A DNA stretch of 61,076 nucleotides, counting the filler, from Hausera hauseri (Eukaryota), in assembly GCA_046269625.1 (NCBI GenBank). It is 10 parts of 10 records of this genome, joined end to end, with 100 filler letters (N's around TTAATTAATTAA, not from the genome) between each part and the next. Parts side by side here need not be neighbours in the genome. Positions count along the whole stretch, not along the records: positions 41,386 to 48,018 come from JBJURY010080103.1; 9 more parts are not named here. The stretch is one strand, 5' to 3'. Shown here piece after piece: positions 20,091 to 61,076 of this stretch. The position numbers and the translations under genes were made by a program. The notes under the pieces are model-generated. The model was not told where the DNA came from, ran no database searches, and was given only the letters and a program-made list of their open reading frames with translations. Each line of letters begins with the position of its first letter. Positions within the stretch are counted from its first letter, which is position 1.

Positions 20091-20197
20091 CCACCGAGAC
20101 GAACTTTATAATAGCATAACCTGACAATTGCAGATCAGGTTATCATATCATCAGACAGAGAAAATGTTTTGCTTCTAAACAATGATATGTCTAATGA

Positions 20198-20229
20198 TTG
20201 ACCTTTATTTTTATTTTAGCAGAGTAAGT
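20198..20229 (+). promoter_or_regulatory. Putative splice acceptor followed 4 nt later by a GTAAGT donor consensus
   Basis: TTGACCTTTATTTTTATTTTAG-CAGA-GTAAGT-ATG; equivalent signal at 24648-24682 on the minus strand. Confidence 0.55.
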
Positions 20230-22286: not shown

Positions 22287-22320
22287 GAGCGGCATCCTCG
22301 AATGAGCCTAACGGCCTGGG

Positions 22321-22797: not shown

Positions 22798-23198
22798 GAG
22801 GTCTCGGTCTAAGTCTGTAATCTTTCCTTCTATTCGATATCTTTGATATTGCTTCTTTAGTAATATCTGGATTTGCTTATCTACTGGGACTATTATTTTT
22901 CCTGTCCTTTTAAGCGGAAGACTGAGGTAAGATAATTTCCTAACTTAGGGTTTTCCCAAACATATGTATTTTCGAAAACTTCTTTTGCTGGGGCAACTTT
23001 CTTTGATCACTTTCTTACTACAATATTCTGTAGTTATCAGCATTCTTGGTGAGTCCTGAATCGTTTTATAGCGGGCGTTTTCTTTGATTTTCTTCCCTAA
23101 AAGGACATTAACTTCGGCTATCATGGGTTCAACAACTTCCTTTTTTACAGACTTTACCTTCTGAGAGGTGCTTGGTTCGATTTATTGGTTTGCATCTT

Positions 23199-24656: not shown

Positions 24657-24759
24657 TCTGAAAAATAGAAAATAAGGGTCAATTCTCTAACAAAGTATTG
24701 TTCTAAATCTGAACCAATTCTTAGTTTGATGGTGGAATAACCCGATCTGTAATTGTCAG

Positions 24760-26180: not shown

Positions 26181-26199
26181 GACAATCGACGAGGATTTG

Positions 26200-29100: not shown

Positions 29101-29695
29101 CTAATCTGATAGGTATGCGTCCCATCGCTACTCTACATAGGATATTGTTAAACATAAGGTTTGGATCGATATTCTTTTGAGGTTCAAAATATACTGGCAG
29201 ATCTTCGTCTTGACGAATCTGTGCGAAAATTATCATTTCGGTTCTGGGCGGAATGTCTTCGTCTACCGAAATCCATACTTCGCCCGGTTTCCTTTCCTTT
29301 ATTATTTTTGCTCCCTTGATTGGTCCAAGCTCAAGTAATTTCCCCTTATGCACATCGATTGCCATGCCTAGTATCTGTTTCAATATATCAAAACCCAGTA
29401 CTACATCGTCTGTTAACTGGTCCATTATCGCAAATTCGTGTTGAAGTTCTTGGCCAATCATATAAATGATAGGAGTCCGTTTAAATTTTGGCTTCGATAT
29501 TTGCCCAAATGCTCCTATGCTACCTGGGTCCGATGATAAGGATGGGCACAGTTGGTTCCGCAGTGTGGTTAGTATTGATTCGTATTTTCTAAACGACTTT
29601 TCTGATGCTGTGTCGATTAATGCATATACTTCCCAGTCTTCAATGTATATATTAGCGAAAGGCCTTCCTTCTACTGCTGTTCCGTAGCAATTCGA
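26200..29695 (-). pseudogene. pol: Gypsy pol, copy B
   Basis: ALIDTAS, RFCIDY, VMPFG, YLDD, TDAS, TDH, HDSDLAGH..CEVC, DIVGP, YHPQCNGMIER. Confidence 0.95.
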
Positions 29696-31499
29696 NNNNN
29701 NNNNNNNNNNNNNNNNNNNNNNNNNNNNNNNNNNNNNNNTTAATTAATTAANNNNNNNNNNNNNNNNNNNNNNNNNNNNNNNNNNNNNNNNNNNNTGGTT
29801 TATCATTGAAAATTAGTAATCCGCATAAGAGTCGAAATAAAAAGAAATATCGTGAAAAGATCGACAAAATTCGTGAACAAAACCATGGACAAGTTTCTTT
29901 GGCTACGGAATTTAGCTACCAAGAAACGTCAGAGACAATCTTTATTCAATGCGAATCAACTGCCAAGATGGAGTGTACAGCGTCATTAAAATGCGTATTC
30001 GTCTGCCGCAGTTAGAAATTGTTGAGTCTACAATCAAAAAGACATCACCAAAGCCTGCTCATCGATTGCGTCAAAAGACACTGACACCACCACCGCCCCA
30101 GAAACCGGAAAAATTGCCAAGAGAAACAAATTCAATGCGCATTTTCTGTACAAGAAAAGAAGATCGCCGTAGCAGTGCAATAGCTGTATCAACAGAAGTA
30201 AAACTAAGACGCGTTCGGCAGCTGCGGTCGCCAAGTAAAAATAAGAAAGTCGGTCCATCGGTTGTGGAAAATCGTCCACTAATACTAAAGCTTTCTTCGA
30301 AACGAGCACAGTCACCACAGTGCAAGTCCCCGCCGCCGTCCAAATCGACCGGTAGCATAAAGTTACGACTGAAGTGTACTCAGGAAATATCAACTGTGGC
30401 AATGAGGAAACAAGATTACAATGCATTCGAATACAGTTAGACCCCGATAACGTTAGCACCTCCGGTGCAGCATCGACAACGCTCCCAACATACTGTTTTA
30501 CAGTTTAGTCCGGCTCAGTCGAGTTCCGACAGTGAATCGGGTGCAGTGCACAATGAAATAAGCCGTCTTCTGCATCGTCAGGAACAGTGAGAACCACTCG
30601 AGTCGAATTCGATTGATTACGGTTGTTCATTTTCTCATCTGCCCGTTCCGTATCTAGTGGGCACCAATCCCACCGTATTCATGGATTCTCACTAGGTTTA
30701 TTTGGTAGTTGTCAAGAACGCTAGGTACAAAAAAGTGTGCAACGCCGCAGCAGATGCTCGAAAAGCGCCAGTACATGTCGTGTCTGATAATATCTCCGGC
30801 GAAATGTTCGTGCCCGGTTGTTACGTTGATCAGGAAAAAGCCAGTTTACCTTGGCATTCTTCGAGCCCATCGATTCCAGTTCTAGCTCCACAGGAACCGC
30901 ATTACAGTATTGATGAAGTAAACAAAGCAGCTAGTACGTTCGGTTATGGCCAGACTGTGTCCAACCAAAATTCTCAGCCTTACTCAGATCCACCAGACCG
31001 TGTCCAACAATCTCCGCTGTGCACGCCTGCAACGTCCCAGTTGAATCCGTATACTTCCCAATCGCCGTTCTGCCAATAACCGCAGCTACAACATGATCAG
31101 AACTACCACTATCCGTCTAGTGGAGGATACAATTACTCGTCTCAACCTACGGGCCAAATGCACCCTTCACCCGTCTGCTCTAGCGCAGCGTGTTCCACTC
31201 AACTGCAGGACTATTCATACTTTCAAAGTGGCGCACAACAATCGGTGCAGTCTCATTCTTCCTGAGATCCGTTATCATTTTTATCAATGCCGATTGCCAC
31301 CTCCAATTATCAGTCGTCCGAATCTCATGTGTCTAAATCTACCAAAAACAAACGGTCATCCAGTCTCAGTAAAAGAGGTAAGAATTCGGTTACTCCGAAA
31401 TTTGGGACCCGCCGCGGCGATGTTGAGGTCCCGGCCGCCCACCCTGCGCCAGTGGGTTAGACGGCGCCTTTCGCTGCCGTCCCACAACATGTCCCCGGG

Positions 31500-34400
31500 T
31501 ATATCACCTCTCCATATTCCATCTTTCTTTTTCTAAATAACAAATATATACACATATACAGCATTGTATTTACACACTGCAACCATTCACAACTTCATCT
31601 CTACCTTACTCCACTCCTCTGACTTCTACCTCACATACAATGGATCTGTAGTTCCTTTCGCTGAACCCTTACAACCTTCTACAACATGCGTCTGCTTTCA
31701 TATTCATTTCCGAAACGTGGTAGCATGAATTCATCACTCACAATTGATATCACGGACAAACTCACCAAACCACAGATCCCCGTCATTCATTTACCCAAAC
31801 ACAGCGCTTCAAACATCTCGACACAACACACCCTCCTTACTCATTCACCCTGCACAAAATATTTCCTCGACATCCAAAACTATACTTAAACTTGGCTAAA
31901 ACTGTACCAATTTTGGCTCCAATCACAGAACGTCGTCGACTCTATCCAAAGCCAACAGCCTCTTTTTCCACTTACCAGCTTCCATCAAAACTAAAACTAC
32001 CAATATAATCTATATCCTTCAGTACAATGACCCATATACTCAACTTTATAATGCCGTCCTCAAGCCTATCGAGCCTTCAATAGACTCCACCATTCAAAGG
32101 TTTTTCAACGATAACGCTATGGGCCTTCAGAAACCTTCTGAATTCTTACGCACATCCGTGTCTCACCTCAACACCATTGGCGTAACATCTGAGCATAGTC
32201 CAGAACTTATTCGTTGATATTTCGTAAATGCATTTCCCCTTCAAATAAGAGCTTTACTTACCGTGGTCGAAAACTCCACGGCTCTGGACAAGCTAGCCGA
32301 ACTTGCAGACAAAGCTTACGAAGTACTGCACTCACACACAACACCAATTGTCTCTGCAACATTAACAACAGCCCAACAACAACAAACTTCAATGCTGCAG
32401 CAACAAATTGCGCAATTACGCTCGGAAAATGAAAAGTTACAGAAGATAATTAACAACATAAACGAAAAATTAAATGAACTAGCGCTGCCTCGACGGGGTT
32501 TTTCTAGGGCTGCTTCCCCTAATGTATTTAATCAACATCAAAGACGGTTGCCTTCGCCCGCGCGGTCATCTACTTGCTATTATCATGTCAAATTTGGTAA
32601 CAATGCTCAGAAATGCTGCATCGGTTGCAAATTTTACTCCCCCAATTTCAATACAAGCAACATCGTTTGCATCTATCACTCAAAATTTGACACACAAGCA
32701 TACAAATGCTTATCTTGCTGTAACTACAACACAAAGTAAAACCAACAATACTAAATTCACACAACAGAGTACACCAAACTCACCAAATACAAAAAACTGA
32801 TTTCGCCGCTAGGACACATGGCAAGTCAAAGCAAAGGCAACAACCCACAAAAAGATAGCCGACACATTTCTTTTCCTGTATTCACGTTGGAAGCAGCAGT
32901 CGTCACTCCAACAAAGCAAAACATTAACTTTCTTATAGACACTGGCGCAGCAATCTCTATACTGCCACCAACAAAACACATCCAAAACAATTTCACTTCA
33001 AAAAGCAACTGTTGACTGCGTCTGGTGGACCTTTACAAATTTTTGGAGTTACAAAATTAACGTTCACTCTTCCACACTTTCCAAACACATTCACATGGAA
33101 ATTTACAATAGCCAATGTACGCACACCTATTTTGGGTTCGGACTTTCTGTCCCACTATAATTTACTTGTAGATTGCAAACGATGTTTCTTAAAGTGCATA
33201 AATAACCTTAATCAAGTTAGCAGTATTTCGGTGTCCACCCCGGCGATCGCTCCCAGCAAGTCAGTACTAAAAAAACGACTTCCGATTTGAATTATTTTTA
33301 TAATCACTCATTATACAGAAATTTTTACTACGGTGACAAATACGATATTGCCAACTGCGTGGCACCTATTACTGACAGTATTGCTGCCAACACAATCTTC
33401 AACACGAACATCCTGCACCAAATACCACCTAGTCACAACACCGTGTCTACAACTCATACCGCAACTGCATCCAGTCACGATACATCGATATCATCGGATA
33501 ACTTTTCACCGTTGCCTTCTGATTTTCAGCAATACATTTCGTCTTCCTGCACGCGTCTGTTGCAGAAGCACAAATCATTCGTATAACCTCAATCCACCTT
33601 TCATCACAGTAACAGCACATCAAAGACCAATACATCAAAAGTCCGCCCGCTATCGCCTCGACGCAGACACTCAGTGGAGGCTGACTTTCTCGAACGGGAA
33701 AAAACAGGCATAACAAGAAGATCAAAATCCTCCTGGTCTTCACTACTACATGTGGTTCCAGAAAAAGATGGCACCTTTCGCCCATGAGGTGATTACCGCC
33801 AACTCAATACCATAACAACAATGGATGCCTACCCTCTACCATTAATCAACGGTATCCTTCACAGGCTCCACGGTGCGACCATCTTTTCGTGCATTGACTT
33901 ACACAAAGCAAACCACCAAATTCCGGTGGACCCAGCAGACATTCCGAAAACGGCTGTCATTACACCTTTTGGCCTTTTCGAATACCTTTTTATGCCTTTT
34001 GGACTCCGTTGCGCCTTCCAGACCTTCCAAAGGCATGTAGATACAGTCCTATCAGGTTTAGACTTTGTCTTTCCCTATATTGATGATATCCCAATTGCAT
34101 CATCTTCCTTGAAACAACACTCTGAACACTAACGTCTAATCTTCCAGCGCTAGCACCAAAACAGTTTGCAAATTAATATCGCCAAATACTCTTTTCTTCA
34201 ACATAAGGTCAACTTCCTAGGACATGTTATTAGCTCCTCCGGACATTAACTTCAGCCAGACCTCATCACGCAGCTCAAAAACACAGCTACAACTCACATC
34301 AACAGAAATACGTTCTTTCCTCGAAACCTTGAACTTTATTCATAAGTATGTTCCACACTGTTCCACTCTCAACGCTTCATTTGCATCGCTAATTTCTGAA

Positions 34401-36136
34401 AAGAAGAAAGAGCCCATTCAATGGACCGCCAAGCTAGTCAACACTTTCGATCACCTCAAAAACAACTTAAAAACTGTAGAAATCCTGGCATATCCAGACT
34501 CACATGCAGAACTCGTCTTAACCACGGACGCATCCACAACAGCTGCAGGTGCTGTCCTCCATCAAGTCGAAAATGGATCCCGTGAGCCACTAGAATTCTT
34601 CTCGCGGAAATTCACGGCACAAAGGCAAAGATATTCCACCTTTGACCGAGAGTTGCTTGCAATGGTCCTTGCCGTAAAACACTTTAAGCATCTGCTAAGT
34701 GCACGAACTTTTACAATACAAACGGACCACAAGCCCTTGCTTCAAATTTGCACCACGAAATCGCCTTCTCCACGTCAGGAGAGGCAAATATCGTATTTGG
34801 CCACATTTAATTTTGTAATTGAGCACCTAAACCGAGTCGACAATTTAGTACCTGACGTCTTGTCCCGATCGGTCAGCTCGATTGATTTCACACAAATTTT
34901 TCCTCAATCCAAACTTTAACAAAACCAGCAACCTCCTGGCATTCTTAAATCTTTTAAATCGTGCAAAACCATCGACGGTGTGGCCTATGACACTTCCAAT
35001 TCTAAAAATCCTAAAGTCATCCTTTCTGCATCGCTTCAAAAAGAAGAATTCAACAACATTCATTCGTTGCATCACCCCGGTGTCAAGGCCACTTTTCACC
35101 CTTTACAACGCCAAGTAGTATGGTCGTCGATGCGCTCTGACGTGCAGGCATGGGTTAGGCAGTGTGCAGCATGCCAAAAATACAAAGTTACTAAGCACTT
35201 AGCCGCCACTATATCATTTTCCCTGCACGACTCGCTTTGAATCTCTTCGCACTGACCTTGTAGGCCCACTACCCTTAGACAACGGCCATCAGTTCATCCT
35301 CACAATGATGGACCGTTCTTCGCGATGACCAGAGGTTGTCCCGCTTCGCAGCACCAACAAAGATACCATCGCAGACGTTTTCATCCGCACTTGGATCAGC
35401 AGGTTTGGATCACCTCGTCACATCATTTCGGACCAAGGTCCACAGTTCGAATCCAACCTGTTTAAAGCTCTTGTCAATCCATTGGGAATTAACCACATTT
35501 ACACGTCACCATATCATCCCCAATTGAATGGCCTTCTCGAACGCTTTCACCGAACGATGAAAACTTCTCTCAAAATCCTTGCTGAGTCCAATCACAGTTG
35601 GACTACACTCCTTCCGTACGTTCTGCTTGGCTGGCGGAACACCATCTACTTCTACAGGCTGTTCACTTGCAGAAGCATAATTTGGAACTTTCATCAGATC
35701 ATTATTCGAGCTGACTGAGCTGGACAATACTCTTACAGACGAAACTATAGAGGCGGCACAGAAACACTTCGTTGACATCAGCAAAGACTCATTTTGCAGA
35801 TTGTTACACGCAAATAAACCTTACATACCCCACGATTTATATACTGCCAAGTTAGTTTGGCTAAAGAATCAGACGCTGTGTGGTTTTCAATCTTAGTATG
35901 TTGGCTCTTACAAAGTAATTCGTTTACACTCCCACAACATCATCATTCTCAAAGACGACAAAGACGTAACAGTTCACATCAACAACGCTAAGCCGGCCTT
36001 CTTCATCGACGATACGTCTCCCATCGAAGCCACTTCTCCGCCAGCATCTTTACACGACGCGCAGCAATCCAACAATTCACCTTCCATCTCTGCTCAATTT
36101 CTTAATCCACTTTCCCCTACGTTTTCTCCCAAAACT
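31500..36136 (+). mobile_element. Small Ty3/Gypsy element (Ubl-gag-pol), copy 1, decayed
   Basis: Gag QKPSEFL, LDKLAELADK, two CxYH..C..C boxes; PR FLIDTGAAIS and ILGSDFL; RT DAYPLP, MPFGL, YIDD; RH TTDAS, TDHKPL; IN YHPQLNGLLERFHR. Confidence 0.9.
32791..32800 (+). promoter_or_regulatory. Putative -1 ribosomal frameshift site AAAAAAC plus stop at the gag/pol junction (also 44725-44734 +, 39737-39746 -, 57734-57743 -)
   Basis: The same heptamer followed directly by TGA or TAA occurs between the Cys-His boxes and the protease in all four copies. Confidence 0.65.
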
Positions 36137-36236: not shown

Positions 36237-39200
36237 TTTTTTATCAAGGTTTGTTTAGGGTTTTGGGACTGTGGTGGCGCCAGAGTCCGCGGCACCACAC
36301 TACCCCCCATAGCAGAAGTGAAACAATAGAATTAAGGATGTAAAAGAAGCAGAAACGTGGAAGGAATAATTTTTATGATCTATTGCGTCTTTGTATGGAC
36401 AAGGCGTTGAATCTTATCGACATTTTGTTCTCTGCTGTATTTGCTGAAAGTGATTGTCTTGCTTTGTTTGACGTGCTGTTTTAATGTCTGTTGAAGTGGT
36501 TGGGATAAAGTTACCTTTTGATTTGACATTTCAGCAAGTTGAGAACTGGTCGGTATGTCACTTATTGTAGCTGTATGAGTTGTTGCAGGTTTTAGAGTAG
36601 CAGTTTGTCTAGTAGGTAGAGTGGAAGAAGAATTGAACGAGTCAAGAAAATTCTGTGTAGACTCAGCTGAGGATTCAGGTATGTCATTGACGAAAAATGC
36701 GGGTTTTACGTTGGTTATGTGCACGTTTTGTTCTTTGTCGTTTTTGAGTATTGTAACCGTGTGTGAACTTAGGTCGAGAACTTGAAATGGTCCTAAGTAG
36801 TTTGGTTGGAATCCAAAAGGTGAAAGGTTTTGTAACCGCACGAACTTTGCATTAAATAGTGAGTCAGGTAAGTATGTTTTGTTACCATGTATTAGTTTGC
36901 AAAAAGAGTCCTGGTTTAACTGGACGAAATGATTTTGTGCGGACCTAATGGTTTCGTCAGTTGGTATGTTGTCCAAATCAGTGAGTTCAAAAAGTGCACG
37001 AATTGTGGTACCAAAAAGTGCTTCAGCGAGTGCGCAACCGGTGGTAGTAGACGGCGTTTTGCGCCACCCGAGTAAAACGAAAGGAAGGATGGTTGACCAG
37101 ATCGTATGAGTTTCGGCCAGAATTTTTAGTGAGATTTTAAGTGTTCTGTAAAAGAGTTCCAATAAGCCGTTCGACTGGGGATGATATGGAGTTGTGTGTA
37201 TGTGACATATGCCCAGTCGATTAACTAAAGACTTTAATAGATTCGATTCAAATTGAGGACCTTGGTCCGTAATTATATAGCTGGGTGAACTGAACCGGCT
37301 AATTTAAATTCTTATGAATGCATCGGCTATGGAATCTATATTAATGGAGCGCAATGGAACGGCTTCAGGCCAACGAGATGCGCGGTCCATCATTGTTAAG
37401 ATGAATTGGTGGTCGTTATCAGAGGTAATGGGCAAACGATATCTAGATGTACAGATTTAAAACGAGATGTGCAGGGAAAGTAAAATAAAGGATGATTGAG
37501 ATGTTTAGCTACCTTGAATTTTTGGCAAGCCACACATTGCCTAACCCAGTACTGTACATCAGATCTCATTGGTGGCCATGTTACATGAAGTTTGAGGAGG
37601 TGGAATGTAGCCTTGGAACCTAGGTGATGCAAAAAATGAACGTGTTGAAATGCAGTTTGTTGGAGAGAAGATGCCAAAATTGGCAAATGTTGCCCAAGCG
37701 CCGACGTGTCCATGGCTATTCCATCGATGATTTGTACGGATTTGTACTGTTTAAGAATTTCAGTGGAAGGGGAATTTAGGATTAATTGTTCCTTAGAGAA
37801 TATTGGTGTGACACTAATAGCACCAACTGACCGTGATAAGAAGTCGGCTATTAAATTGTCTGTGCCGGAAATATGGCAAATTTTGAAGTTAAATGTTGAC
37901 AGATGAGATATGGCGTTATTATCGGAGTGATGGTTGTTTCATGTTCATTACGTGAACAAGAGGATTATGGTCCGTTTGAAAAGTGAAGAAACGAGCGATA
38001 AGCAAATGTGAAAAATGTTTCAGAGCTAAAACAATGGCCAGGAGTTCTCTATTGAAGGTACAATAACGGCGTTCTTGTGGCTGCAGCTTACGTGAAAAGA
38101 ATTCTAACGGCTCGTTTATACTTCGAGATATTTGATGAAGAACCGCTTCTACTGCTGTAATTGATGCGTCGGTTGTTAAAATTAGGTCAGCATAAGGTTT
38201 TGGGTAAGCTAAAATTTCGACTGTTTTGAGCTTGTCGCGGAGTTCATCGAACTGGTTAATAAATTCCGGTGTCCAATATATGAGCTTTTTCTTCGGCCAT
38301 GCTCCTAGTTCAGCGAAAGGAGCAGTTAACTGGCTACAGTGTGGGAGGTATTTATGTACAAAATGTAAAGTCCCAAGGGAACTACGCACATCAGTAGTGG
38401 TTTTTGGTAGCTCGATGTTTCGTAGCTGATGGATTCTATCAGGCTCTTGACTGTGACCGTCAGGTGTGATTACGTGGCCAAGGAAATTGATCTTTTCTGA
38501 AAGAAGAAACAATTGCAAATTGTGCTTGTGCAAGCGTTGGCAAACTAGTCTGAGATGTTCTTCGTGTTGTTTGGGCAATACAGATGCGACTAGTATGTCA
38601 TCCGTGTATGGATATACAAATGGCAAGCTTGAAATAATTGCATCAATGTGCCGCTGAAAAGTTTGTCCTGCGTTCTTTAAACCGAAGGCATGAATGCGTA
38701 TTCGAAAAGACCAAAAGGTCTTATTATGGCCGTTTTTTGGATGTCTTCTGAAGCTACCGGTATTTGATGGTAGGCTTTCTCAAGATCTATAGTCGACTAG
38801 ATTATTGTCTTGTGTAAGGAATGTAATATATCCTTAATCAAAGGTAGAGGATAAGTAATGTTATTAAGTTGGCAATAATCGCTGCATGGACGGAATGTGC
38901 TATTTTTTTGGGGACGACGTGGAGTGGTAATGCCCAATGTGATTTCAAGCCTTTTATTATGCAAGCTTGCTCGAGTGCAGAGAATTCCGCTTGGATTGTT
39001 TGTCGACGGCGTGGTGAAAGTGGGCGGAGTGATGATATGATGAAACGTCGTGTTAGCCGGTCAAAATGCTGGATCTTTCTTAATTGTATGGAAACAAGAC
39101 TTGAATAAATATTGTTGCATTTCTTGGCTAAGCGCAGTAAAGGTTTGATTGGACTTAGTGTGGGAAATGGTAGAAATCGGGCCGCCTAAATCGGACTGCA

Positions 39201-41220
39201 ACAAAAAAGTAGGATTGTTTATATTGGTTTTATCAGTAAGGTTTTTATTCACATTGATTAATGGTTTCTTCAATATTGCTTTTTTATTGAGATAGGCTGC
39301 ATGATCGGTTGGTTATTTGTAGGGGTCGACTTTGTTGAACTGCTTTTAATGATCCGACGTTGTTTACAATCTACAAAAAGGTTGTAGAAGGATAAGACAT
39401 CAGAGCCAAGTTTTGGGGATTGTGTGTCGGCATCTATGAAAGTCCAATTGAAAATGTCGGAGAATGGTGGTCAAGTGAATGAAACCTTGGAAGTGCCGAA
39501 AATGTGTAAAGCTTGGCCGTTAGCTTTGTATAATTTAGTGTTAGATGGTGAAATGGATGGTGTTTTGATGGACGGTGGTAACAAAGAGACAGAGGCCCCT
39601 GAGTCAATAAGGAAGTTGATAGATTGATGGGATTTGAAAGTTAAAGAGGCTTTTAATGTGAAAACTGCATAAGTACGGCTATCATGATGAAAACGTTTGC
39701 CTGTGCCAGTATGTGCCGAAACATCTGGTAGCTTTGTCAGTTTTTTTGGATAGAAGGATTTGGGGAGTCGGAAGAATTACGATGGAATTGGTTAAACCGA
39801 CTGGAAAACGTGCAACCGTTGATGCAGTTTCGGGCTTTGTTGCTGAACCTATTATGGTAAATACAAACGATGTCAGGTTTTTAAAAAGCGGGTGTAAAGA
39901 ATTTACACCCCGGGCAACATTTGTTGGATTGGTCCTTGAATCTAGTGTGATAATAGCACTCCATAAGTCGAATAAGGGACCTAATGGATCTCGAATTGTG
40001 TGATGATGCACGGCTATGATTAGTTGTGAATCGTTCTCGTCGCGTCATGGATAAACTGTCCAGTTTAGACGTTAAAGTGGAAATAGCTTGGTATTGCCGT
40101 GTTTTCAGACCGGAGAGCGTTTATTTGGTTATTTAGCGCTAAGATTTCAGCATTAGATGGTGTCAAAAATGGTTGTAATGTGGCTGCGACAATAAGAGTA
40201 TGGTGTGTATTTAATATTAAATAGCTTTTATCAGCCAGTTGTGCTAAATTTTCTAACGTAGCGGTGTCTTCAACGACGGTTAGTAAAGCGCGTATTTCTT
40301 TCGGTAACGATTGAAAGAAATATCTACGCAATAAGTCGGCATTGTTTATCTGGTTTACCCCTAACTTGTTTAATTGGGTTAAAGATGTTTGTAAAAATTC
40401 TGAGGATTTCTGGTTTCTTATCGAATTATCATTGAAATATTTTTGGATAATGTTATCCAGAGAAGGTTCAGTGAGTTTAAGAACAGCGTTAAATAGTGTC
40501 TTGTATGGGTCTACGGTTTGGAAGATTTCGGAAAGATTTGGGAGCGGTGATTTAATACTGGCTGGCAAGAGTATTTATAGACTATTTGCTTTGAAGAAAG
40601 GATCAGTAATGTTATTTGATTTAACCACTGTACATGGAATTCTAGCCATGTACGAATGGAATGTTGTTTATCTGTAAAATAGTCGACACAAGGGAAATGG
40701 ACCAAAGAGGATGCTGAATGCAGAACTAAAGGGGACTGCTTTAGAAGTACGTGTATGGTAGAAATATCAGTGAGTTCCGGAGATTCGTTTAATGCAGATT
40801 TGGTGTTGGAGCCACCGAATAGGCGCGGATATAAAGTTATTATTAATGGTGAAGTTGGGGATAAAAAGGATGATTTTAGATCGGAATAATGAAGATGGTA
40901 TCGGGTTATGCTTAGTGTGTAGCCTTTTAAGTTAATGCGATGAGCCAAATCTACAAACATATCTGCTACTGTTGCTTTAATGTGTGTGCGGTGTGTGTGG
41001 ATGTTTATTTTGAAGGAAAAGAAAAATAGGGAAAAAGGCGAGTTCCATGTCAGGGGTACAATGCGCTACCAGGGACACGACAGTGCCAAAAATCCCTGCA
41101 TTGTAATGGTTGATCTTTCTGACAGGTGAGATCATTGATTTGTACTGCAATGGTTCATTCCTAGCGTTAAGGTAATTCTGGAGAAATTGCGGACTATTGT
41201 CGAAATACGAGGTCACCAAC
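36237..41220 (-). mobile_element. Small Ty3/Gypsy element, copy 2, near full length, with PPT and start of 3' LTR
   Basis: PBS-like TGGTGACCTCG at 41218-41208; Ubl ending RLFGG; gag NQKSSEFL; LIDSGAS; YTDD; TTDAS; IN; PPT GGGGGGTAG (36308-36300) then TGTGG at 36299. Confidence 0.9.
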
Positions 41221-41385
41221 TTTTCGGGTAAAATTTTATATTTTAATAATTTAGTAGGTTCATTAATATAGGCATAATGAAAATANNNNNNNNNNNNNNN
41301 NNNNNNNNNNNNNNNNNNNNNNNNNNNNNTTAATTAATTAANNNNNNNNNNNNNNNNNNNNNNNNNNNNNNNNNNNNNNNNNNNN

Positions 41386-43200
41386 GCAATCTTAATCTCT
41401 TGACATATGAACAATTGATGAGATATCATGGGCTTCACACCTACTATTCTGACCCCATCATCACCATAAGGATATGTAATAAGGATATATCCTTTTCGTC
41501 AATAGATCCCTTCAACCAATAATTATTGATAAATTTAAACCAAACAAAAATTACCGAGTCAGTATCGCTGCTAGAAATGACATTGGAGATAGTGAGGACA
41601 ATTTAGTCGAACTTATGACACCAGCGGAAAAACCGGAACGACAAGTTCGAAATTTAAAAGCGGGTAGTAGCAAGCCTAACGAAATTTTCGTGTTATGAAA
41701 TGATCCGGATCCGGCATTTCAAAATTGAAAAATAATTTCATATCAAGTTTGTTATCAAGTCGTATCGCAGGTCGAAGAGGTTACTGTGAGTCAAATGGTG
41801 CGCCTCAATTGGTCGGATAAAAATGATAATTCGAATGCAAATTCTTATGCTAAAAGTAAAAGTGTTATTGACGAAGAAGTTACTATTTCTGGATTGTCTC
41901 ATTTTACCAAAGTTCAAACCTTGGCAGATCTACCTCACGCTCCTCCGACAAATTTATTCTGTCGACCGCAACAACAAACAATTGATTTAACCTGGAATCC
42001 ACCTCCTCGTCAGACTCTAAATGGCATTCTCATCCGTTTTGTCGTTCAATTTTATGAACTAAATCGGATGGGAGGCGAATCTGATATGTTAAGTGTTGAC
42101 GTTCAAGGTAGAACGACTGTAACGCTGAACAATATGTGACCGTGAACTGGTTACTCAATACGAGCTATTACTTTGAACAGGAATGATCTGGGTCCACCGT
42201 CGAAAAGTTTAGTTTGTGCCATCGTGGAAGCTAAACCAGAAGAACCAGAACAAGTTAAAGCTGCTAAAATTAACAACACATGTATCAGTATTTCTTGGTT
42301 ACACAGTACTAGAACCAATGGACGAATATTGGAGTACTGTGTTGCGGCGATTGGTTATGGTCTAACGGAACCCCTGCCTCGATGTCGGCCGCCTAATTTC
42401 GAAAAACGATATAATTACATGATTTGCTGTAATCGACAACATATTTCACGAGTATACGTCTTGACCAGAAATGCGTACAATGGCGAATACAAAGAGTCTA
42501 CGAAGATTGACGAATTCCCTGCAATACTATCATTAGAATTCATTTTAATTGTTAAAAAGGCTACTCCTTTAGTCCTCCGTGCTAGGTTATCCTTGGTTAT
42601 GCTCAAAGGCCAACGTGGAAAGAAGATTTATTAGACATTTCGAACAGTGACCATTCAAATTTGGATGTTCTTAAAAAAAATTCGCGATTAACAAAGTCCG
42701 TCGAAAAATTCCGCACGTTCTCATATGTGTGCAGTACAATTTACAATTCCATCGAATGCAATCTGAATATCCAAAAATCAACAAATGGTTTGCCACGAAC
42801 ACCAATCATTAGTGATATTCGAACGAGGGAAAATATTGTTTTTATGAGCTGGAAATCTCGTGGTACAACTGACAGTACGGCACCAATAATTGGGCTCATT
42901 GTGAACTGGACTAATCGGTACACAAACAAATTCAAAACTGTACCACCCGAACACAGTGCTCGAATGCTTTATATGAACAACGTTACTTGTTCGTCAGGTT
43001 TTAATTTTCAAATCAGGTCCCAGAATGCGATAGGCAAAAGTGATTATAGCAATCCAAAGAGTTTTCGAACTCAAGGAACGGCTTCCAAATTCGCAGATAC
43101 TAATACCCTTTTACCACAAAGGCAGATCAGGTCACACGGCGCCAATGTCAATTTAACAGCATTCGGTTCCGGCGAAAATTGTTCAGCGCAATTGTTTTAG
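41386..43200 (+). pseudogene. Dscam-like cell adhesion gene fragment (FN3 repeats with an intervening Ig-like segment), disrupted
   Basis: Successive FN3 units (TLADLPHAPPTNL..LTWNPPP..LNG; EAKPEEPEQVKA..ISW..TNGRILEY; TAPIIG..TCSSGFNF..NAIGKSDYS..RTQG..NLTAFGSGENC) follow the Dscam FN3 pattern. In-frame stops present. Confidence 0.65.
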
Positions 43201-43202
43201 AC

Positions 43203-46200
43203 CGTGGCACTACAGCAATCATTCCATATTAAAATCACATCATCAATGTTTGGTCACAATGAGGATGCTGTCATGGCGTTCAATAAAACCACATTCAGAC
43301 ACAGGTTGGTGAAATACTTTTTGCTGATCTGCCCCCTCCAGTGCGATTATTTTACCACTATTCCCCGGGCTGCACGCTCAAATCTCTTTCTAGCGCAAAT
43401 GAAAACAGCTCAAAATCCCCGCGCATACAAACCTTTTCTCAAACCTTTACCTTACCGCAATTTTCCTTTCTTTATTTTTGCAATAACCATCATATAAAAA
43501 CCATAAAAGCTCCAATCAACGACACAGCACAGTTCCTATACAACTCTTTATCCTCATTATTCAATACTTCTGACTTCTACTTCACATATCAAGGTCTTAC
43601 CATACATCCTTCAGACTCCCTTTAACTCTTCACATGTCACGAACATCGGATCATCCATCTCACGCTCCACTTCCGCCTTCGGTGGGGATCGGACCCAAAT
43701 CCATCTTTCTCGGATGATAAATCTACAAATACATTCAATATTTATCGTTTACCAAACTCTCAACAATCATGAGATTCGCTAAATCTATTTTGTGTGGAAT
43801 TTTTCCTTGACAAAAACAATTCCAGTAAACCATGGCTCCAGTTCCACCAACAGTGGCTAAAGTCCAACAACGTCACTGACACTTTCACGCGAACAAACAG
43901 TCTTTTATTTCTTCTGTCTGCTAACGTTAAGCAGCAGATCAGCAAAATATCCGAAATGCCTAAATCATCGACACCTTACGAAACACTCTGTGAGGCTGTA
44001 CTCCATATCATGGATCCTTCGATAGATAATATTATACAAAAATACTTTAACCACCATGCGATAGGAAACCAAAAGCCATCCTATTTTCTCCAAACGGCCA
44101 TTTTGCAGCTTAACGCCGTAGGCGTAACGCCTACGAATAACACGAACCTAATTAGCCGTTATTTTTTGTCATCTTTGCCACCTCAATCAAAGCCTTGCTT
44201 ACCGTCGTCGACAAGTCTACTGCTATTGAAAAACTGGTCATAATGGCTGATAAGTTCTTTGAAATCTTCCATACAAATAGTTCTCTCCCAATTGCGGCTG
44301 CAACCACAAATGCGCCAGTTATAGACACAACATTCTTCACTCGACAATTGCAAATGATGCAACAACAATTCGACACATTACAACAGTCAATTTTGGCCAT
44401 TACCACCCAAATGAACAATTTTAATGGACCTCGGCGAAGTGAATCGAGACCTTCATGGGAGCGAAGCATTTAAAAACACTCTACGCGATCCATTTCACCT
44501 GGCGGATGCATAGCTTGCTTCTATCATACGAGGTTTCGAAAAGATGCAAGGAAATGTTTCTTGGGCTGCCGGTTCTACAGCGAATGATACGCTGTGGACA
44601 ACCCTATTTGCATCTACCACAATAAGTTCCAGTCACAGGCCAGATCATGTATGCCTGGTTGCAAATATTACCAAAATAAATCACTTCCATTTTCCTCCCC
44701 TTCTCCTTTTTTTCCAAATCCTTCAAAAAACTAATATCGCCGCCAGATTTTACGGCACACTCTGGTATAGGCAATACATTGCATTCTTCTGGCCGTCTTA
44801 ATACCACCTCTGCTGCCTTTCGGTTGAAAGCTGCAATCTTCTCTGACAATTTATCAAACATAGATTTTCTGATTGTCTTTGGAGCCGCCTTTTCCATTTT
44901 ACCCCTATCTTTCGCTCCAACATCCAACAATTTTTCTTAGCCTCAGCTATTTACAGCCAGGGAGCAGCTTTTGCGTATTGTTGGCACCACAGAGCTAACT
45001 TTTACTTTTCATCACTTACCAGACAAGTTTGTTTGGAAGTTCCTCATCGCTAACATAAATTCACCAATAATCGGCTGGGATTTCCTAGCCGCACACGATC
45101 TGTTGGTTGATTGTAAATATGGTCGTCTTCTGTGCAGGAATTCTATCGCAAATCCAGTCAAATGTCTCACAGACAATCTAGCGAACAATTCATTGCACTC
45201 ATTTGTAAATATGTTGAACGCTTCATCAACTATTGACAAAACCTTCGATAAAGTAGGTATTCATTCAATTATAAATAACAATCACAAATCTATTTTAAAA
45301 CAAAAATCCAAATTCAGTCTTAACAGTGGCAATGCCAGTTGATTTTCGTCAATTACTGAAACTGTCTCTTCCGATGATATGCCTCAATCGTTCTTATCTC
45401 TAGACTCCGATTTTGAATCATACATAACAACGTCTTGCTTTCGCATAGTTAACAGGGACATTAACTTCAAGTCTCCATCCTCAACTTATTACCATATAGT
45501 AACAGAGCATCAGAGGCCTATCAAACAAAAGGTCAGACCCTTGTTGCCACGCAGACGTAAAGCTGTGGAACAGGAGTTTAATGAACTGGAAAGGTCTTGC
45601 ATCATTCGCAGATCGAATTCACCTTGGGATTTTCCTCTTCATATAGTAGCAAAGAAACATGGGACTTATAGGCCATGCGGCAACTATAGTAAATTAAACA
45701 ACCTTACTATTACAGATGCCTATCCAATACCACTCATTAAGGATATCCTTCATAGTCTCAATAACACAAAAACCTATTCTACCATTGATCTGCAAAAGAC
45801 CTATCATCAAATTCTTGTTGCACCTGATGACATTCAAAAAACTGCTGTCATCACACCTTTTGGCCTTTATGAATGCATTTTCATGCCTTTCGGCCTACGT
45901 AGCGTATCTCAGACCTTTCAACGCCATATTGACACCGTACTCTCAGGTCTTGATTTTGCTCATCCATATATAGACAACATACTAGTCGCTGCCATCTCCA
46001 TCAAACAACATCAAGAGCATCTCCGAATTATTTTCCGCAGATAGCATCAAATCAACCTACAGATTAATTTATCCAAGTGTAATTTCTTCCAGAAAAGCAT
46101 CAACTTCTTAGGCCACATAATTACTCCCGATGGTCATTCTCCCAGCCTGATCGCTTACAACAAATGAAAAATGTGACGTTACCAACTACTACTACCGATA

Positions 46201-47840
46201 TAAGGAGTTTTCAAGGGACATTGCATTTCGTACACAAATACGTGCCACACTGCTCCGAACTAACGGCACCTTTGGCACACTTCTCATCCGGGAAGAAAAG
46301 ACATTTAATCCACTGGACTCCCGATTTAGTAAACCAATTTGATCGCCTTCATGAAAGTCTGAAAATCGTTAAAATCTTGGCCTTTCCAAAACCCAACGCG
46401 GAACTAATATTAACTACTGATGCCTGAACCACAGCCACTGGTGCAATATTGCATAAAGTATACAATGGTGTCGAGGAGCCATTAGAATTCTATTTCCGAA
46501 AGCTCACGCAACCAGAAAATCGATACTCAAATTCGATTGTAAGATCCTGGCCATAGTTCTCTCCGTAAAGCATTTCAAGCATTTGCTTCTATCACGTCAT
46601 TTTATCATCCAAACCAACCATAAGCCTCTACTTCATATCATGACGTTAAAACAGCCATCATCCAGAAAAGAACGACAGATATTATACCTGTCGACATTTA
46701 GTTTTTCTATGAAATATATTTCAGGCACCGAAAATTTAGTAGCAGACTTTCTGTCGCGGTAGGTCAGCTGAATTACAGTTCAGCCAATTTTCTCCTCTGA
46801 AATCCTGCGAAGTAATCAGCCATCATCTGATATTCTCCAAGCTTTTAAATCTGTTGATATCATCGATGACATCGCCTACGACACATCCAACTCGATCAAT
46901 AAAAAAAATCATTCTCGCTCCATCGTTACAAAATATAGCTTTCACTAATTTTCAATCTCATCATCCGGGTTCAAAAGCCACATTTCGTCTACTGCAACGC
47001 CACGTGGTATGGCCCACTATGCTTACAGATGTACAGATATGGGTTAAGGGATGTGTAACATGTCAGCAATATAAAGTCCATAAACACATTAAACCACCAC
47101 TTTACCACTTCCCTCGTACGTCTCGTTTTGACACGTTCATTTGGATTTTGTCGTTCCTTTACGATGCGACAACGGTTATCAATACATCTTATTTATGATA
47201 AATTGCGCTTCTCGCTGGCCGGAAGCTCTTCCTCTTCGATCAACCAATACCGATTCCATAGCAGATGCCATTATCAAAATAGGGATCAGCCGCTTTGGTT
47301 CACCACGTCACATTTTAACGGACTAGGGTCCGAAATTTGAACCTGATCTTTTTAAATCTCTAGTAAAGCACTTGGGGATAGCCCATTTCCATACAACACC
47401 GTACCATCCCCAAGCAAATGGTCTTCTTGAGAAATTTCACCACACCATGAAGACTTGCTTGAAAATCTTGGCAAATAACAATCGTAATTTGATCTCAATT
47501 CTTCCTTTTGTCCTGCTCGGTTGAGGCAACACGCCATTTACCACCACAGGTTGTGCTTCAACTAAGGCTCTCTTTTGGATACCAATTCGTGCCATATTTG
47601 AGCTCTCCAATCTCGATGAAAGTCCGTCAGATGAAGTTATTTGTGTGGCACAGTCCCACTTTGTAGATGTCAACTCAAACGCCTTTTGCCGTCTTATAAA
47701 TAAAGCCAAATCGTATATTCCAGAAGACTTATACTCAGCCTAGTTTGCGTGGCTGAAGGATCCGTCACCTTCTGGTTTTCGGCCTCAGTACGTTGGCCAT
47801 TATAAACTACTCGACCTTTCTTCGCACACCGCTACTACTT
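43203..47840 (+). mobile_element. Small Ty3/Gypsy element, copy 3, decayed, abutting the Dscam-like fragment
   Basis: Possible short 5' LTR (AATAAA at 43282, ending CA at 43303) then TGGTGA; Ubl ending RLRWG; gag IGNQKPSYFL; IIGWDFL; DAYPIP, MPFGL, YIDN; TTDA; IN RWPEA, YHPQANG. Confidence 0.9.
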
Positions 47841-48118
47841 TACGTAATAGTAGGTAGAAAAGAGTCCACTGCCGCAAGCCCCCCCCCCCGCGGAAAGAAA
47901 GCATTGAGCGTGGGAAAATTTTCGGACCGTGGGAAAATTTGTTATGTTATCGAGAAAATTTTTTTTCCTTGGTAGCTAAATTTTTTTTGAAAGTTCTATC
48001 TTGTGCAGAATTTAATTCNNNNNNNNNNNNNNNNNNNNNNNNNNNNNNNNNNNNNNNNNNNNTTAATTAATTAANNNNNNNNNNNNNNNNNNNNNNNNNN
48101 NNNNNNNNNNNNNNNNNN

Positions 48119-54657: not shown

Positions 54658-56412
54658 TGTCATTTATGAAGATATTACAATTGCTATTAATAGAATCCAT
54701 TTGTATGCCTAAAACAATTGGCATTGTGGCTCATAATTGTTCAAAGCCTAAAGGACAAAAGAACTCCCTAATGGATTTGAAAATGCCCTGGAGCTGACCC
54801 AGAACAGTTAACAATTAATGGCCACAGCTATTGGGTCTACAAGGAGTCAGAATTTATTAAAGCTAAAATCCGAGAGTGCTGCGTAAAGAAATCATTCTTC
54901 TTATTCAATTGTGCGTACTACTCTGGGAATTCCGCTATTATTGAACCAACGACACCTTTTGAACCGATAATAATATCACGTGCGGAATGTCAAGACGCGT
55001 TTAAAATAGGAGTCATAACAATACAAAACGCGCAAATACCAACAGTACAAAATAAAATAAAATATACTCCCATTTTCAGAGCTGGAAGAATAGATAAAAC
55101 AAAGGATGGCAGTTGTAAAGGAGTAAATTACGATGTTGGAGGTACTATTGCACCTAGAACAGTAGCCATCGAAGACTACCAAGTTTAATTGAAGGAATAT
55201 GAAAGATTATTTGACTCACAAACTAAACTTATGACAACAATGAGTGAGTGTAAATATTAGAATGGAGAATGTGATATTGGAGAGTCTAAGATGACTTGGG
55301 AAGTGTCATCAAATAGATGTCATTTGACGTTGCTGAAAGAAGGAAAATTTAATAAAACAATAAGAAAAACGACCGATAAAGAGACAACGACTTATAAAGA
55401 AGGAGCTAAAGAAGTAAAGATGACAGAAGTGGCGACGGTAGTATATTCAGAAAATCCTGAAGAAATGATGAGATTTAAAATTATTGGAACGATCAATGAA
55501 TGTAATGAGGAAATGTCTAAAACTAATTACAAAGGTATCTACCTCTCGTCGAAGGAAATAGCGTAAGCTAAAACAAAATTAGATAAAAAGGACATAAAAC
55601 TGACGCAATATTTTGATAATAAAATCGACTTTCTGATCAACTACGTCAGAAAAGAGATCAGAAGTCTATATACAGCGATAATACTAAACGAATGTAAATT
55701 AAATAATGAAATAATACGAAATAAAATGGCATTGGTAATAATGAACCCCGATATGGTAACACCAATGATGCCATTCGGAGACGGAGTTATTGGAAGAGTG
55801 ATGGGGGAAGCATTAATAGCTATAGAATGTAAGAAAATAGAATTATCGATAAGGCCAACTGAAGAGTGTATGGCGGAATTACCAGTGATTGATAGTATGG
55901 AACCTCGTTACGCAATGCCAGTAACGAGGATATTGTTGGATGTTAATGCCCAGCCCATCTTGATGGACAATTGTACTTGTAATATGTCACCAATGTTTAA
56001 ATTAGACGATAATAAATGGATAAAAATACCAAAAAGAGAACCGGTTCCAAAACCAGAAACACTAAGTCTAATTATTTTACAAAGAAACCAGAAGTTTGAA
56101 CCATTAACCGGTATATCGCAGGGAGGAATTTACATACAACAAAATTTAGAAGATTACCGGCGAATGTTGTTATTTCCTCAGCAGCGACAGAGGGTGATAA
56201 CAGAGCTAAAAAGAAGAGTGATGTGGAACGGAGAAGGTTCGCCACAATGGGAAAATCGGATGGGGAAGGATTACTTGAAAAAGGTTGCAAGAAACGTAAT
56301 GGAAAAGATGCGGGGAAAATTTTTATATTTTGGTCAAGCTGCGTCAGGATTTTTAGCAATATATTTTATTATTAGTGCCTGACGGACAATATTTACGGCA
56401 CTCGGCAAAGCC
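54658..56412 (+). pseudogene. env: env-like class III glycoprotein, copy C
   Basis: Signal MSFMKILQLLLI, IVAHNC..SLMDL, ECQDAFK, DGSCKG, NECKL..ALVIMNPD, GEAL..EC..ECMAELPV..PVTRIL, GGIY..LLFPQ, FGQAASGFLAIYFII. Confidence 0.8.
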
Positions 56413-56512: not shown

Positions 56513-59190
56513 GGATATACAAATGGCAAGCCTGAAAGTACTGAATCAGTGTACCGTTGGAAAGTTTGTGCTGCGTTTTTTAAACCGAACGGCATGAATG
56601 CGTATTGGAAAAGACCAAAAGGTGTTATAATGGCTGTGTTTGGGATGTCTTCTGGTGCTACCGGTATTTGGTGGTAGGCTTTTTCGAGATCTATGGTTGA
56701 ATAAATCGCAGTCTTGTGTAAGGAATGCAACATATCCTTAATCAAAGGTAGAGGATAAGCGTCAATGGCAGTGACGTTATTTAGTTGGCGATAATCGCCG
56801 CATGGACGGAATGTGCCATTTTTTTTCGAGACGACGTGGAATGGTGATGCCCACGGTGATTTTGAGCGTCTTATTATTCCAGCTTGCTAGAGTGCGGAGA
56901 ATTCCGCTTGGACTGTCTATCGACGGCGTGGTGAAAGTGGGCGGAGCTTTTGCCTAACGGGCTTAGGATTTTCTGTGATGATATGATGAAGTATCGAATT
57001 AGCTGGTCAAAATGCTGGGTCTTTTTTGTTGTGTGAAAACAAGACTCGGTTAAATATTGTTGCATTTCCTGGCTAAGTCTAATAAAGGCTGTTGTTGTTA
57101 TGGCAGTGGACAGATTGGATTCAGTGTGAGAAACGCTAGAAATCGAGTCGCCTAAATCGTCCTTGCCAACGCTATTTATTCCTCTATTACAGGACTGCAA
57201 CAAAATCGTTGGATTATTTATATTGATATTAAGGACGTTATTATTTGCGTTGGCTGATGGTTCTTTTAATATCGAGTTTATAGGCGAGATAGGTTGCATG
57301 ATCGGTTGGTTATTTACAAAAGTCGGTTTTATTGAACCGCTTTTGATGATCCGATGTTGTCTGCAATCCACAAGGAGATTGTAGAAAGATAAGAAATCAG
57401 ATCCAAGCATTGGCGATTGTGTGTCGGCAACGATGAATGCCCAATTGAAAATGTCGGAGATTGGTGGTAAAGTGAATAAAACCTTGGATTTGCTGAAAAT
57501 GTGTAAAGCTTGGCCGTTAGCTGTGTATAATTTAGTGTTAGATGTTGAGTTGAATGGTGTTTTGATAAATGGTGGTAACAAGGAAACAGCAGCCCCTGAG
57601 TCAATGAGGACGTTGATTGGTTGATTGGGTTTGAATGTTAAGGAAGCTTTTAATGTGAAAACAGCGTAGGTACGGCTATTAGAATGAAGACGTTTGCCTG
57701 TGCCAGTATGTGCCAAAACATCGGGCGGCTTTGTCAGTTTTTTTGAATAGTAGGATTTGGTGAGTCGGGAGAATTACGATGGAATTGGTTATGTCGACTA
57801 AAAAGCGTACTACCGTTGATGCAGTTTCGGGCTTTATTGCTGAACCTATTATGATAAATGCAAACAATGTCAGATTTTTGAAAAGCTGGTGTAAAAATTT
57901 ACACCACAGGCAACATTTTTTGGATTGGTCCTTGAATTTAGTGTGATAATAGCACACCATAGGTCGAGTAGGGGACCTAGCAGATCTCGAATTTTGTGAT
58001 GAAGCACGGTTATGATTGGGTTTGAATCGACCTCGTCGCGGCATGGATAAATTGTCCAGTTTCGAAGTTAAAGCAGAAATGGCTTGGTGTATTGCCGTGT
58101 TTTTAACCCGGAGAGCGTTTATTTGGTTATTCAGCACTACGATTTCAGCGTTAGGTAGTGCCGAAGGTGGTAATAAAGTGGCTGCGATGATAGGAGCATG
58201 ATGTGTTTCTAATATTTCATAGCTTTTATCAGCCAGTTGTGTTAACTTTTCTAACGTGGCGGTGTCTTCAACGACGGTTAGTAAAGCGCGTATTTCTTTC
58301 GGTAACGATTGAAGGAAATATCTACGCAATAAGTCGGCGTTGTTTGTCTGAATTGCCCCTAACTTGCTTAATTGGGTTAAAGATATTTGTAAAAATTCTG
58401 AGGGTTTCTGATTTCCTATTGTGTTGTCGTTAAAATATTTATGGATAATATTACCCAGAGATGGTTCCGTGATTTTTAGTACAGAGCTAAAGAGTGTTTT
58501 GTATGGGTCACCACTTTGGAGATTTCCGACAAGTTGGAAAGTTGTGACTTAATGTTAGAAGGCAAAAGTATAAGCAGGCTGTTTGCTTTAAGAAGAGTCG
58601 ACGATATTATTCGACTTCAACCAAACCGCATGAAAGTCCAACCACGTTCGGCTAAAATGTTGCTTATCAACGAAGTATTCTACGCAAGATAGGTTTACAG
58701 TGGATGACGAAGGTAAAGGTGGATTTAGCGGCACGCATATAGTAGGAATGTCGGCAAAATCTTGTTAGTCGTTAGATGAGGCTTTTAATTCATATCCACC
58801 TAGTAGACGGTAGTGTACAGTGAGTATAGATGTTGAAAATGAATGGGTGTAACTTGTAATAATGTCGGATTGTCGAAGAAAAATCCGTTATAACTAAGGC
58901 AAAAATTAGCAAGAGTTGTTTGTCGCCGTAATGTCTGAAAAATTTGCAATTATTGATTTGTGTATGTAGAAGGTTTGCGTATGCTTATTTTCGAATAATA
59001 AGACGAGAAACGAAAATGTCACATAGCTCAGGCGTGCAGTTTGATGCATAAGACACGGTCGTTCCCAAAATCCCTGAATTGTAGTAACTGATCTTTCTAA
59101 CCGCGGAGATCATAGATTTGGTTTGTAATGATTTATCTGATATTTTTGACCAACGGTATAGTATAGCTGAGATATTGAGTGCAGTGGTTG
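56513..59190 (-). mobile_element. Small Ty3/Gypsy element, copy 4 (Ubl-gag-PR-partial RT); close relative of copy 2
   Basis: Extensive nucleotide similarity to 38610-41200; RLLGG, LEKLTQLADK, CYYH, LIDSGAAVS, DLEKAYHQIP, MPFGL. Confidence 0.9.
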
Positions 59191-59246
59191 AACTACTTTG
59201 GTCGACATTATTTTACAAATTATTATGAAATAAAAATGTAGCAAAT

Positions 59247-61074: not shown

Positions 61075-61076
61075 AA

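Follow-up and report, generated by a model that had tools for sequence, protein, structure and literature searches.

Here, we describe a ubiquitin-like (Ubl) domain that precedes the gag gene in a family of Gypsy-type long terminal repeat (LTR) retrotransposons from Hausera hauseri. The stretch of DNA analysed (the window; 61,076 nucleotides, assembly GCA_046269625.1) consists of ten short contigs with 100-base N spacers between them, and four gag copies are located on four separate contigs: 29796-36136 (copy 1, + strand), 36237-41285 (copy 2, - strand), 41386-48018 (copy 3, + strand) and 56513-61076 (copy 4, - strand). Their pairwise DNA likeness is 64-80% (blastn-aligned parts only). In each of these decayed copies, a ubiquitin-sized segment precedes a CsRn1-type gag. 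The domain and the start of gag share one frame in copy 3, with stops at 43623 and 43770, and the frame breaks inside the domain in copies 1, 2 and 4. The features of the four copies are as follows.

Copy 3
41417..43200, + strand: decayed host-gene fragment with fibronectin-III repeats, candidate cargo 5' of copy 3 (Pfam fn3, E 4.8e-9, 1.6e-3 and 7e-4)
43282..43312, + strand: possible 5' LTR end and primer site, tentative (AATAAA at 43282, TGGTGA at 43307; from sequence, with no second LTR for comparison)
43461..43688, + strand: ubiquitin-like domain with one in-frame stop (43623), ending RLRWG; supported by the relatives-only profile and a beta-grasp model
43674..43688, + strand: tail motif RLRWG, its Trp private to copy 3 (intact relative P0157 ends RLRGG)
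43689..43790, + strand: predicted flexible linker from tail to capsid, with a stop at 43770 (low model confidence at residues 94-111; disordered counterpart in P0002)
43791..44734, + strand: gag, capsid followed by CX2HX9CX3C knuckles at 44516 and 44609; one frame break
45343..47195, + strand: pol pieces (Pfam RVT_1, E 3e-15; Integrase_H2C2, the integrase zinc finger, E 1e-12)

Copy 1
31519..31724, + strand: ubiquitin-like domain, frame-broken, ending R..RGS (profile E 5.7e-4)
31725..32739, + strand: linker and gag with two knuckles (tblastn with P0157 and P0002)

Copy 2
41046..41141, - strand: coding-like leader before the domain, common to copy 4 (59119-59024), from codon-position differences
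40811..41032, - strand: ubiquitin-like domain ending RLFGG (40825-40811), first strand in another frame (profile E 0.21)
39810..40810, - strand: linker and gag with two knuckles (sequence, comparison with P0157)
36383..38779, - strand: pol pieces in the Gypsy order reverse transcriptase (RT), RNase H, integrase (Pfam)
36237..36310, - strand: what we take, from general LTR anatomy, to be a purine tract and the 3' LTR start (36299), cut by the contig end

Copy 4
58795..59018, - strand: ubiquitin-like domain, frame-broken, ending RLLGG (58809-58795; profile E 0.028)
57800..58794, - strand: linker and gag (tblastn with P0157, E 2e-69)

A preliminary description of this DNA had read a tail motif before each gag, and all four motifs are present at the positions it gave: RLRWG in copy 3, RLFGG in copy 2, RLLGG in copy 4 and, in copy 1, R at 31711 out of frame with RGS at 31716-31724. 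Its statement that the di-glycine end is kept did not hold within the window, where Gly-Gly remains in only two of the four copies (copies 2 and 4), but did hold in the larger alignment presented below. Six-frame translation of the window gives four RLxGG motifs, two of them before gag. The four copies are dead members of a Ubl-bearing Gypsy lineage.

The family was assigned to CsRn1-type Gypsy elements through its Gag signature. CX2HX9CX3C, which defines CsRn1-like Gag (PMC2582038; here and below, papers are cited from the parts of their text that were available), occurs twice in each of copies 1-3 and once in frame in copy 4. As in the CsRn1 clade (PMC2582038), it is accompanied by a DUF7041-type helical capsid (copy 3 gag, Pfam E 0.004) and by the pol order RT, RNase H, integrase, found in copy 2 with RT/RNase H at 38779-37922 and integrase at 37938-36383 (- strand, Pfam). 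The model of copy 3 gag has a predicted retroviral-type capsid fold and matched the dArc1 capsid with Z 8.6 and a root-mean-square deviation (rmsd) of 7.0 over 146 aligned residues, a moderate score for a helical domain; Arc, Ty1 and Rous sarcoma virus (RSV) capsids were likewise among its matches. The likely 3' LTR start amounts to only 63 nt in these short contigs, with no second match in the window, and the candidate primer site consists of TGGTGA at 43307 only, no host tRNA sequence being available for comparison with tRNA-Trp. Unlike the CsRn1 clade, the present lineage has a Gly-Gly-ended Ubl and a variable leader before Gag, and its signature is doubled: two tandem knuckles were found in 27 of 31 Ubl-branch relatives and in none of the 104 other CsRn1-type Gags found, which have at most one. 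These doubled knuckles (32575-32721, 39958-39812 and 44516-44662 in the window, and in the relatives) are a second marker of the Ubl lineage.

To characterize copy 3's family in its own genome, we used the contigs of one public run (X1) that contain copy 3's contig and are possibly its source. Summed contig depth over domain and gag was several hundred to several thousand, versus about 4-16 per single listed contig. The ubiquitin-like domain thus belongs to a many-copy repeat, although depth does not equal copy number. Variation was examined on 43560-43800 in 224 aligned X1 contigs. At the Trp codon of RLRWG, 617/729 and 710/729 of the depth differed at two places (tallied separately), reading Gly, and both stop codons differed in most of the depth (164/216 and 283/300). 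The Trp and the two stops are private to copy 3. Among the commonly variable places, 17 of 26 were at third codon positions of the gag frame (p 0.0008); for the 15 places within the domain the number was 9 (p 0.03). No indel reached 25% among the 224 contigs over this interval.

Single-sequence searches with copy 3 gave none of 1392 candidates, and no ubiquitin was found among PDB sequences. With a profile built from a 7-row alignment of window pieces, 2568 proteins were retrieved at E <=0.001, and the best 150 were examined. Thirty of these were labelled as having a Gly-Gly 27-61 residues ahead of a fixed gag anchor. We then reconstructed a gag-core tree without the domain columns from 141 hits and copy 3 (quick method, midpoint-rooted; 9 of the 150 hits were excluded because they lacked the anchor region). 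One branch of 38 rows (Shimodaira-Hasegawa-like approximate likelihood ratio test, SH-aLRT, 99) united copy 3 with all 30 Gly-Gly proteins and seven short-leader proteins. A Gly-Gly end, mostly (R/K)LxGG, therefore lies just before the capsid in 30 of the 37 branch relatives. Of the other 104 tree rows, 47 have at least 40 upstream residues, and [LI]xGG was found in one of these 47. P0157, another relative, shares 54% identity with copy 3 over domain and gag (54-55% for gag), and its domain ends RLRGG; its tail, linker and gag start also matched copy 2 (E 4e-6). In the intact relatives, the frame is open from an unrelated upstream leader through the domain into gag, as had been proposed for the segment, and the order in this one frame is leader, Ubl, Gly-Gly, linker, capsid. 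The Ubl feature is real and lineage-wide. What had to be given up is the N-terminal placement of the domain, which is internal and preceded by unrelated leaders of up to ~870 residues.

The homology of this segment to ubiquitin was examined by profiles and by structure prediction. A domain profile from 29 relatives only, scanned over 1224 six-frame pieces of the window, ranked the four copies as the top four loci, with E-values of 1.7e-8 (copy 3; 2.3e-4 once its five nearest kin were removed), 5.7e-4 (copy 1), 0.028 (copy 4) and 0.21 (copy 2). The best unrelated place in the window had E 0.27, and copy 2 is not separable from background by the profile alone. Both a chance motif and a flanking host ubiquitin gene were rejected on the basis of this ranking, the variation in X1 contigs and the gag-core tree. 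A 33-row domain profile aligned to ubiquitin 2-78 in register through Gly-Gly (~1e-8 per domain), and a 19-row profile without the two most ubiquitin-like rows still placed ubiquitin first (~2e-7, single-domain chains). The Pfam ubiquitin model matched 9 of 46 scanned relatives, two above the cut-off (E 3.7e-23 and 2e-7) and seven at 4e-5 to 1.3e-3.

In the AlphaFold2 model of copy 3 (the sequence read with X at its two stops), a beta-grasp was predicted over residues 6-77, with strands 6-13 and 17-24, helix 30-40 and strands 45-49, 52-54 and 74-77. The predicted local distance difference test score (pLDDT) was 82-88 at residues 21-60 and below 50 at residues 94-111. Foldseek matched this model to ISG15 and ubiquitin (probability 1.0, TM ~0.72), and comparison with the OASL Ubl gave VIA Z 7.7 and rmsd 2.6 over 78 aligned residues. 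In the model of the intact relative P0002, a disordered leader (1-96) is followed by a folded domain (100-168), disordered Gly-Gly and linker (172-207), and then capsid, coiled coil and two knuckles; since they are predicted to be disordered, Gly-Gly and linker would be accessible. The P0002 domain matched SUMO and ubiquitin about equally (Foldseek). Both the predicted fold and the ubiquitin homology agree with the preliminary description, and we conclude from the profiles and models that the segment before gag is a ubiquitin-like beta-grasp domain homologous to ubiquitin.

The domain has diverged in a selective manner. Pairwise identity averages 16% in the domain body versus 35% in the gag core. 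In the tails of 29 domains, for which Gly-Gly was the selection criterion, P5 is Arg or Lys in 22 (Arg in 17), P4 is Leu or Ile in 28, and P3 is variable. With residues numbered via P0076, all 28 domains have hydrophobic residues at the core positions corresponding to ubiquitin 43, 50, 67 and 73. Ile44, Arg42 and His68 belong to the surface by which ubiquitin is recognized by activating (E1) and conjugating (E2) enzymes and by its readers, and these are kept in 0/28, 3/28 and 2/28 domains, respectively; Lys48 is kept in 10/28. The conserved surface expected of a conjugatable modifier is absent, although a dedicated E1 is possible. Retention of fold core and tail with loss of the Ile44 surface fits a protease site on a folded scaffold better than a binding surface or modifier. 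One member is exceptional: residues 177-252 of P0076 are identical to ubiquitin at 55 of 76 positions (72%). Its gag is 60-72% like those of five neighbours, the domains of which are only 12-21% like that of P0076, and three of these neighbouring domains are 30-36% like each other. The simplest reading of these identities is that P0076 probably obtained its near-canonical ubiquitin through recapture from the host.

The position of Gly-Gly relative to gag was also examined. The first residue after Gly-Gly lies a median of 33 residues from the gag anchor (n=30), and for the start Met of Gags in the other branch this distance is 37 (n=104; p 0.53). As judged from these distances, Gly-Gly sits where an ordinary CsRn1 Gag has its start Met, and P0022 starts with Met at the position of the post-Gly-Gly residue of its near twin P0102. 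Of the seven branch members that lack the domain, six have their start Met 28-44 residues before the anchor. The residue after Gly-Gly is Ser, Met, Gly, Ala, Thr or Val in 25 of 31 (linker background 35%; rows related), Pro in none of 31, and a primary destabilising residue, by the N-end classes, in one. The hallmarks of a fusion precursor, namely a di-Gly end (itself the selection criterion), a hydrophobic P4 and no Pro after it, are thus present.

Leaders of at least 90 residues were found in 19 of the 30 Gly-Gly members, versus comparable extensions in 4 of 104 in the other branch. The nearest upstream Met lies a median of 73 residues from the domain (21 leaders), and no fixed Met was found at the domain start among the Gly-Gly members. 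Only one pair of leaders was alike by blastp. Some contain pieces of DIS3/CNOT1, histone H2A, 5'-nucleotidase, methyltransferase and, weakly, a cohesin HEAT region, and others resemble translated AT-rich non-coding DNA. The leader common to copies 2 and 4 (32 codons) has 8, 4 and 17 differences at the three codon positions (p 0.005). Upstream of copy 3, multi-copy depth begins at 42900, within the region of the fibronectin-III fragment, which we regard as a candidate for cargo of this element. A 42-nt in-frame GT..AG stretch of this fragment (42956-42997) is skipped in one or two X1 contigs, possibly by cryptic splicing during a copying round. A Gly-Val-Arg peptide in a minority of leaders (P0003, P0013, P0021, P0040 and P0157) may represent the primer-binding site read through in frame.

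Based on sequence features and on analogy with known fusion precursors, we assign a probability of about 0.7 to the reading that a host deubiquitinase (DUB) cleaves behind Gly-Gly, so that Gag is released with a constant small residue at its N-terminus and the leader-Ubl piece is discarded. Translation would start at any in-frame start that the leader offers, often within captured scraps of host genes. A host enzyme of the ubiquitin-specific protease (USP) or ubiquitin C-terminal hydrolase (UCH) type would recognize fold and tail and cut after Gly-Gly, and the leader-Ubl piece, now Gly-Gly-ended, would be discarded, possibly via the di-Gly C-degron route. Mature Gag would then begin with a small residue at the position of the start Met of an ordinary CsRn1 Gag. 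A broader proposal, tentative and with somewhat less than even odds, is that the domain acts as an adaptor of the ubiquitin-fusion kind, by which the N-terminus of Gag no longer depends on the start codon, so that the 5' end and LTR would be free to capture and translate pieces of host mRNA with the capsid unharmed. Such an adaptor could be refreshed by ubiquitin recapture, and the cut-off leader-Ubl pieces would steadily provide new chimeras of host-gene products, to be degraded through the di-Gly degron or put to use. If a host DUB does make the cut, capsid maturation in this retrotransposon lineage would rely on a host enzyme; this would explain the tolerance of in-frame host-gene cargo upstream of gag, and the ~30 natural Ubl variants that keep only fold and tail would form a panel for what DUBs need to cut.

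Other roles of the domain have to be weighed against cleavage by a host DUB that frees Gag. The cut might be real and serve mainly to control Gag or its yield, as a folding or expression aid or as a timed switch like those of ubiquitin-ribosomal fusions and SDE2, the leaders being passengers. About a third of the members keep the domain despite short leaders, and in SDE2, cleavage by USP5 behind a ubiquitin-mimicking Ubl activates the protein (PMC13572447). We consider this unlikely as the main use because it leaves unexplained why leaders are open for at least 90 codons in 19 of 30 members and in only 4 of 104 other Gags. If the domain instead stayed attached, it might be a module on the Gag particle that binds the proteasome, endosomal sorting complex required for transport (ESCRT) or other readers of ubiquitin. 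Ubiquitin-Gag fusions reportedly recruit ESCRT, and the predicted beta-grasp fold would suit such a role. However, Gly-Gly and P4/P5 are the best-kept positions and the Ile44 patch is lost, whereas to our knowledge an uncleaved Ubl domain has no need of Gly-Gly. Hence this module appears quite improbable, even though Burro elements hold an internal Ubi2/SUMO-like domain (PMC6431247).

That the element releases a modifier of its own, conjugated to host or element proteins, has a very small probability in our view. A di-Gly end would be exposed by the cut, Arg is frequent at P5 (17/29) and P0076 is nearly ubiquitin, but the surface is unconserved even among closely related families (30-36% identity), a variable leader would remain on the released piece, and the element showed neither an activating nor a conjugating enzyme, the RING open reading frame (ORF) of the window belonging to a different element on another contig. 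Release of a conjugatable Ubl and recruitment of ESCRT had both been put forward in the preliminary description; with the Ile44/Arg42/His68 surface not kept and a variable leader attached to the domain, both are unlikely. Equally hard to sustain is the idea that another protease makes the cut (a SUMO- or NEDD8-type enzyme, or the aspartic protease of the element), or that Gag starts at a later Met and the domain upstream of it is a relic. The equal closeness of the P0002 model to SUMO and ubiquitin and the linker Met of 11/30 members would suit it; the sequence profile puts ubiquitin first and in register, variation within the domain of copy 3's family is biased to third codon positions (9/15, p 0.03), and 19/30 members have no linker Met.

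Several observations weigh against the proposed cleavage or reduce the force of the evidence for it. Some tails are far from ubiquitin (KAYGG, TLPGG and SLSGG), and the Foldseek E-values of the copy 3 and P0002 models are 1.2e-3 or weaker. The search profile contained the domain, so domain-bearing hits were favoured, and the rows of the tree and counts are kin rather than independent, which makes the p values too small. Seven of the 37 branch relatives were called without the domain, and three of them form their own branch; some may be truncated gene calls. Because 11 of 30 members have a Met between Gly-Gly and the gag core (19 have none), Gag could also be made without the domain. Since the leaders derive from gene calls on short contigs, some of the cargo fusions may have been created in assembly. 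In P0166, an unrelated, bacterial-looking N-terminal half is joined to the second half of a Ubl-lineage gag, a probable assembly chimera. The frame of copy 3 contains a stop at 43284, and no ATG occurs between this stop and the domain. A narrower scan of loci for DNA of intact relatives gave 70 pattern matches, none confirmed, and the intact relatives are known as proteins.

Parts of the proposed mechanism have precedents in other systems. Cytopathic pestiviruses such as BVDV (bovine viral diarrhoea virus) Osloss, CP1 and CP Rit likewise have captured ubiquitin in a polyprotein as a signal for host hydrolases that fixes the N-terminus of the next protein; in BVDV, cellular hydrolases cut the ubiquitin insertions and generate the authentic NS3 end (PMC8310069). 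They differ in that their ubiquitin is near-intact and occurs in single strains of an RNA virus, whereas the domain described here is lineage-wide, deeply diverged and located before a retrotransposon capsid, its cleavage being predicted. Among host proteins, SDE2 and FAU resemble the present case in their diverged di-Gly Ubl, which is cut by a host DUB (USP5 cuts SDE2 through ubiquitin mimicry), and in their N-pieces, which are KLHDC2 substrates removable via the C-degron route (PMC8013793, PMC13572447). These are host genes with a fixed N-terminal Ubl, without a variable leader, and are not mobile.

Among mobile elements, the giant Burro/GYPSM1 Gypsy elements of planarians also contain a ubiquitin/SUMO-like domain in a Gypsy-like polyprotein, but there Gag is N-terminal, the Ubl lies downstream between MATH and BCL-2, and the available text mentions neither a Gly-Gly site nor a processing role (PMC6431247). 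Helitrons carry DUB domains of their own (PMC9741609). LTR-mediated retroposition in animals similarly links pieces of host mRNA to LTR elements, and these are often in sense and in frame; the part of that paper available describes no device by which Gag would tolerate an upstream fragment in its frame (PMC5131818). In the available text of the CsRn1 paper, the word ubiquitin does not occur (PMC2582038). No Gly-Gly-ending Ubl before a retrotransposon Gag was found in the literature searched, Repbase, Dfam and subscription journals being outside its scope. The present case thus appears to combine a known class of element with a processing trick familiar from strains of pestiviruses and from a small number of host genes, for which no description in an LTR element was found in that literature.

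Other features of the window were also noted. The gag of copy 3 ends in an A-run just before its stop (44722-44734), and many relatives end in Lys-Asn; we presume from its pattern that this run could be a site of -1 frameshifting into pol. Another Gypsy family is represented by two related elements (11477-21812 and 21913-29695, ~70% alike) that have extra ORFs, including a RING finger at 22324-22944 in one of them. A fragment with Endonuclease VII and protein-primed DNA polymerase B was found at 185-712, which we take to be Polinton-like. The contig at 4401-11376 has a GC content of 64% (34-44% in the others), with 99-nt repeats, a long unassigned ORF and a small-subunit rRNA 3' piece at 8596-8747, and may come from another organism. 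Finally, a piece of a Monjiviricetes-type fusion glycoprotein gene is located at 55567-56382 (Pfam E 6e-51).

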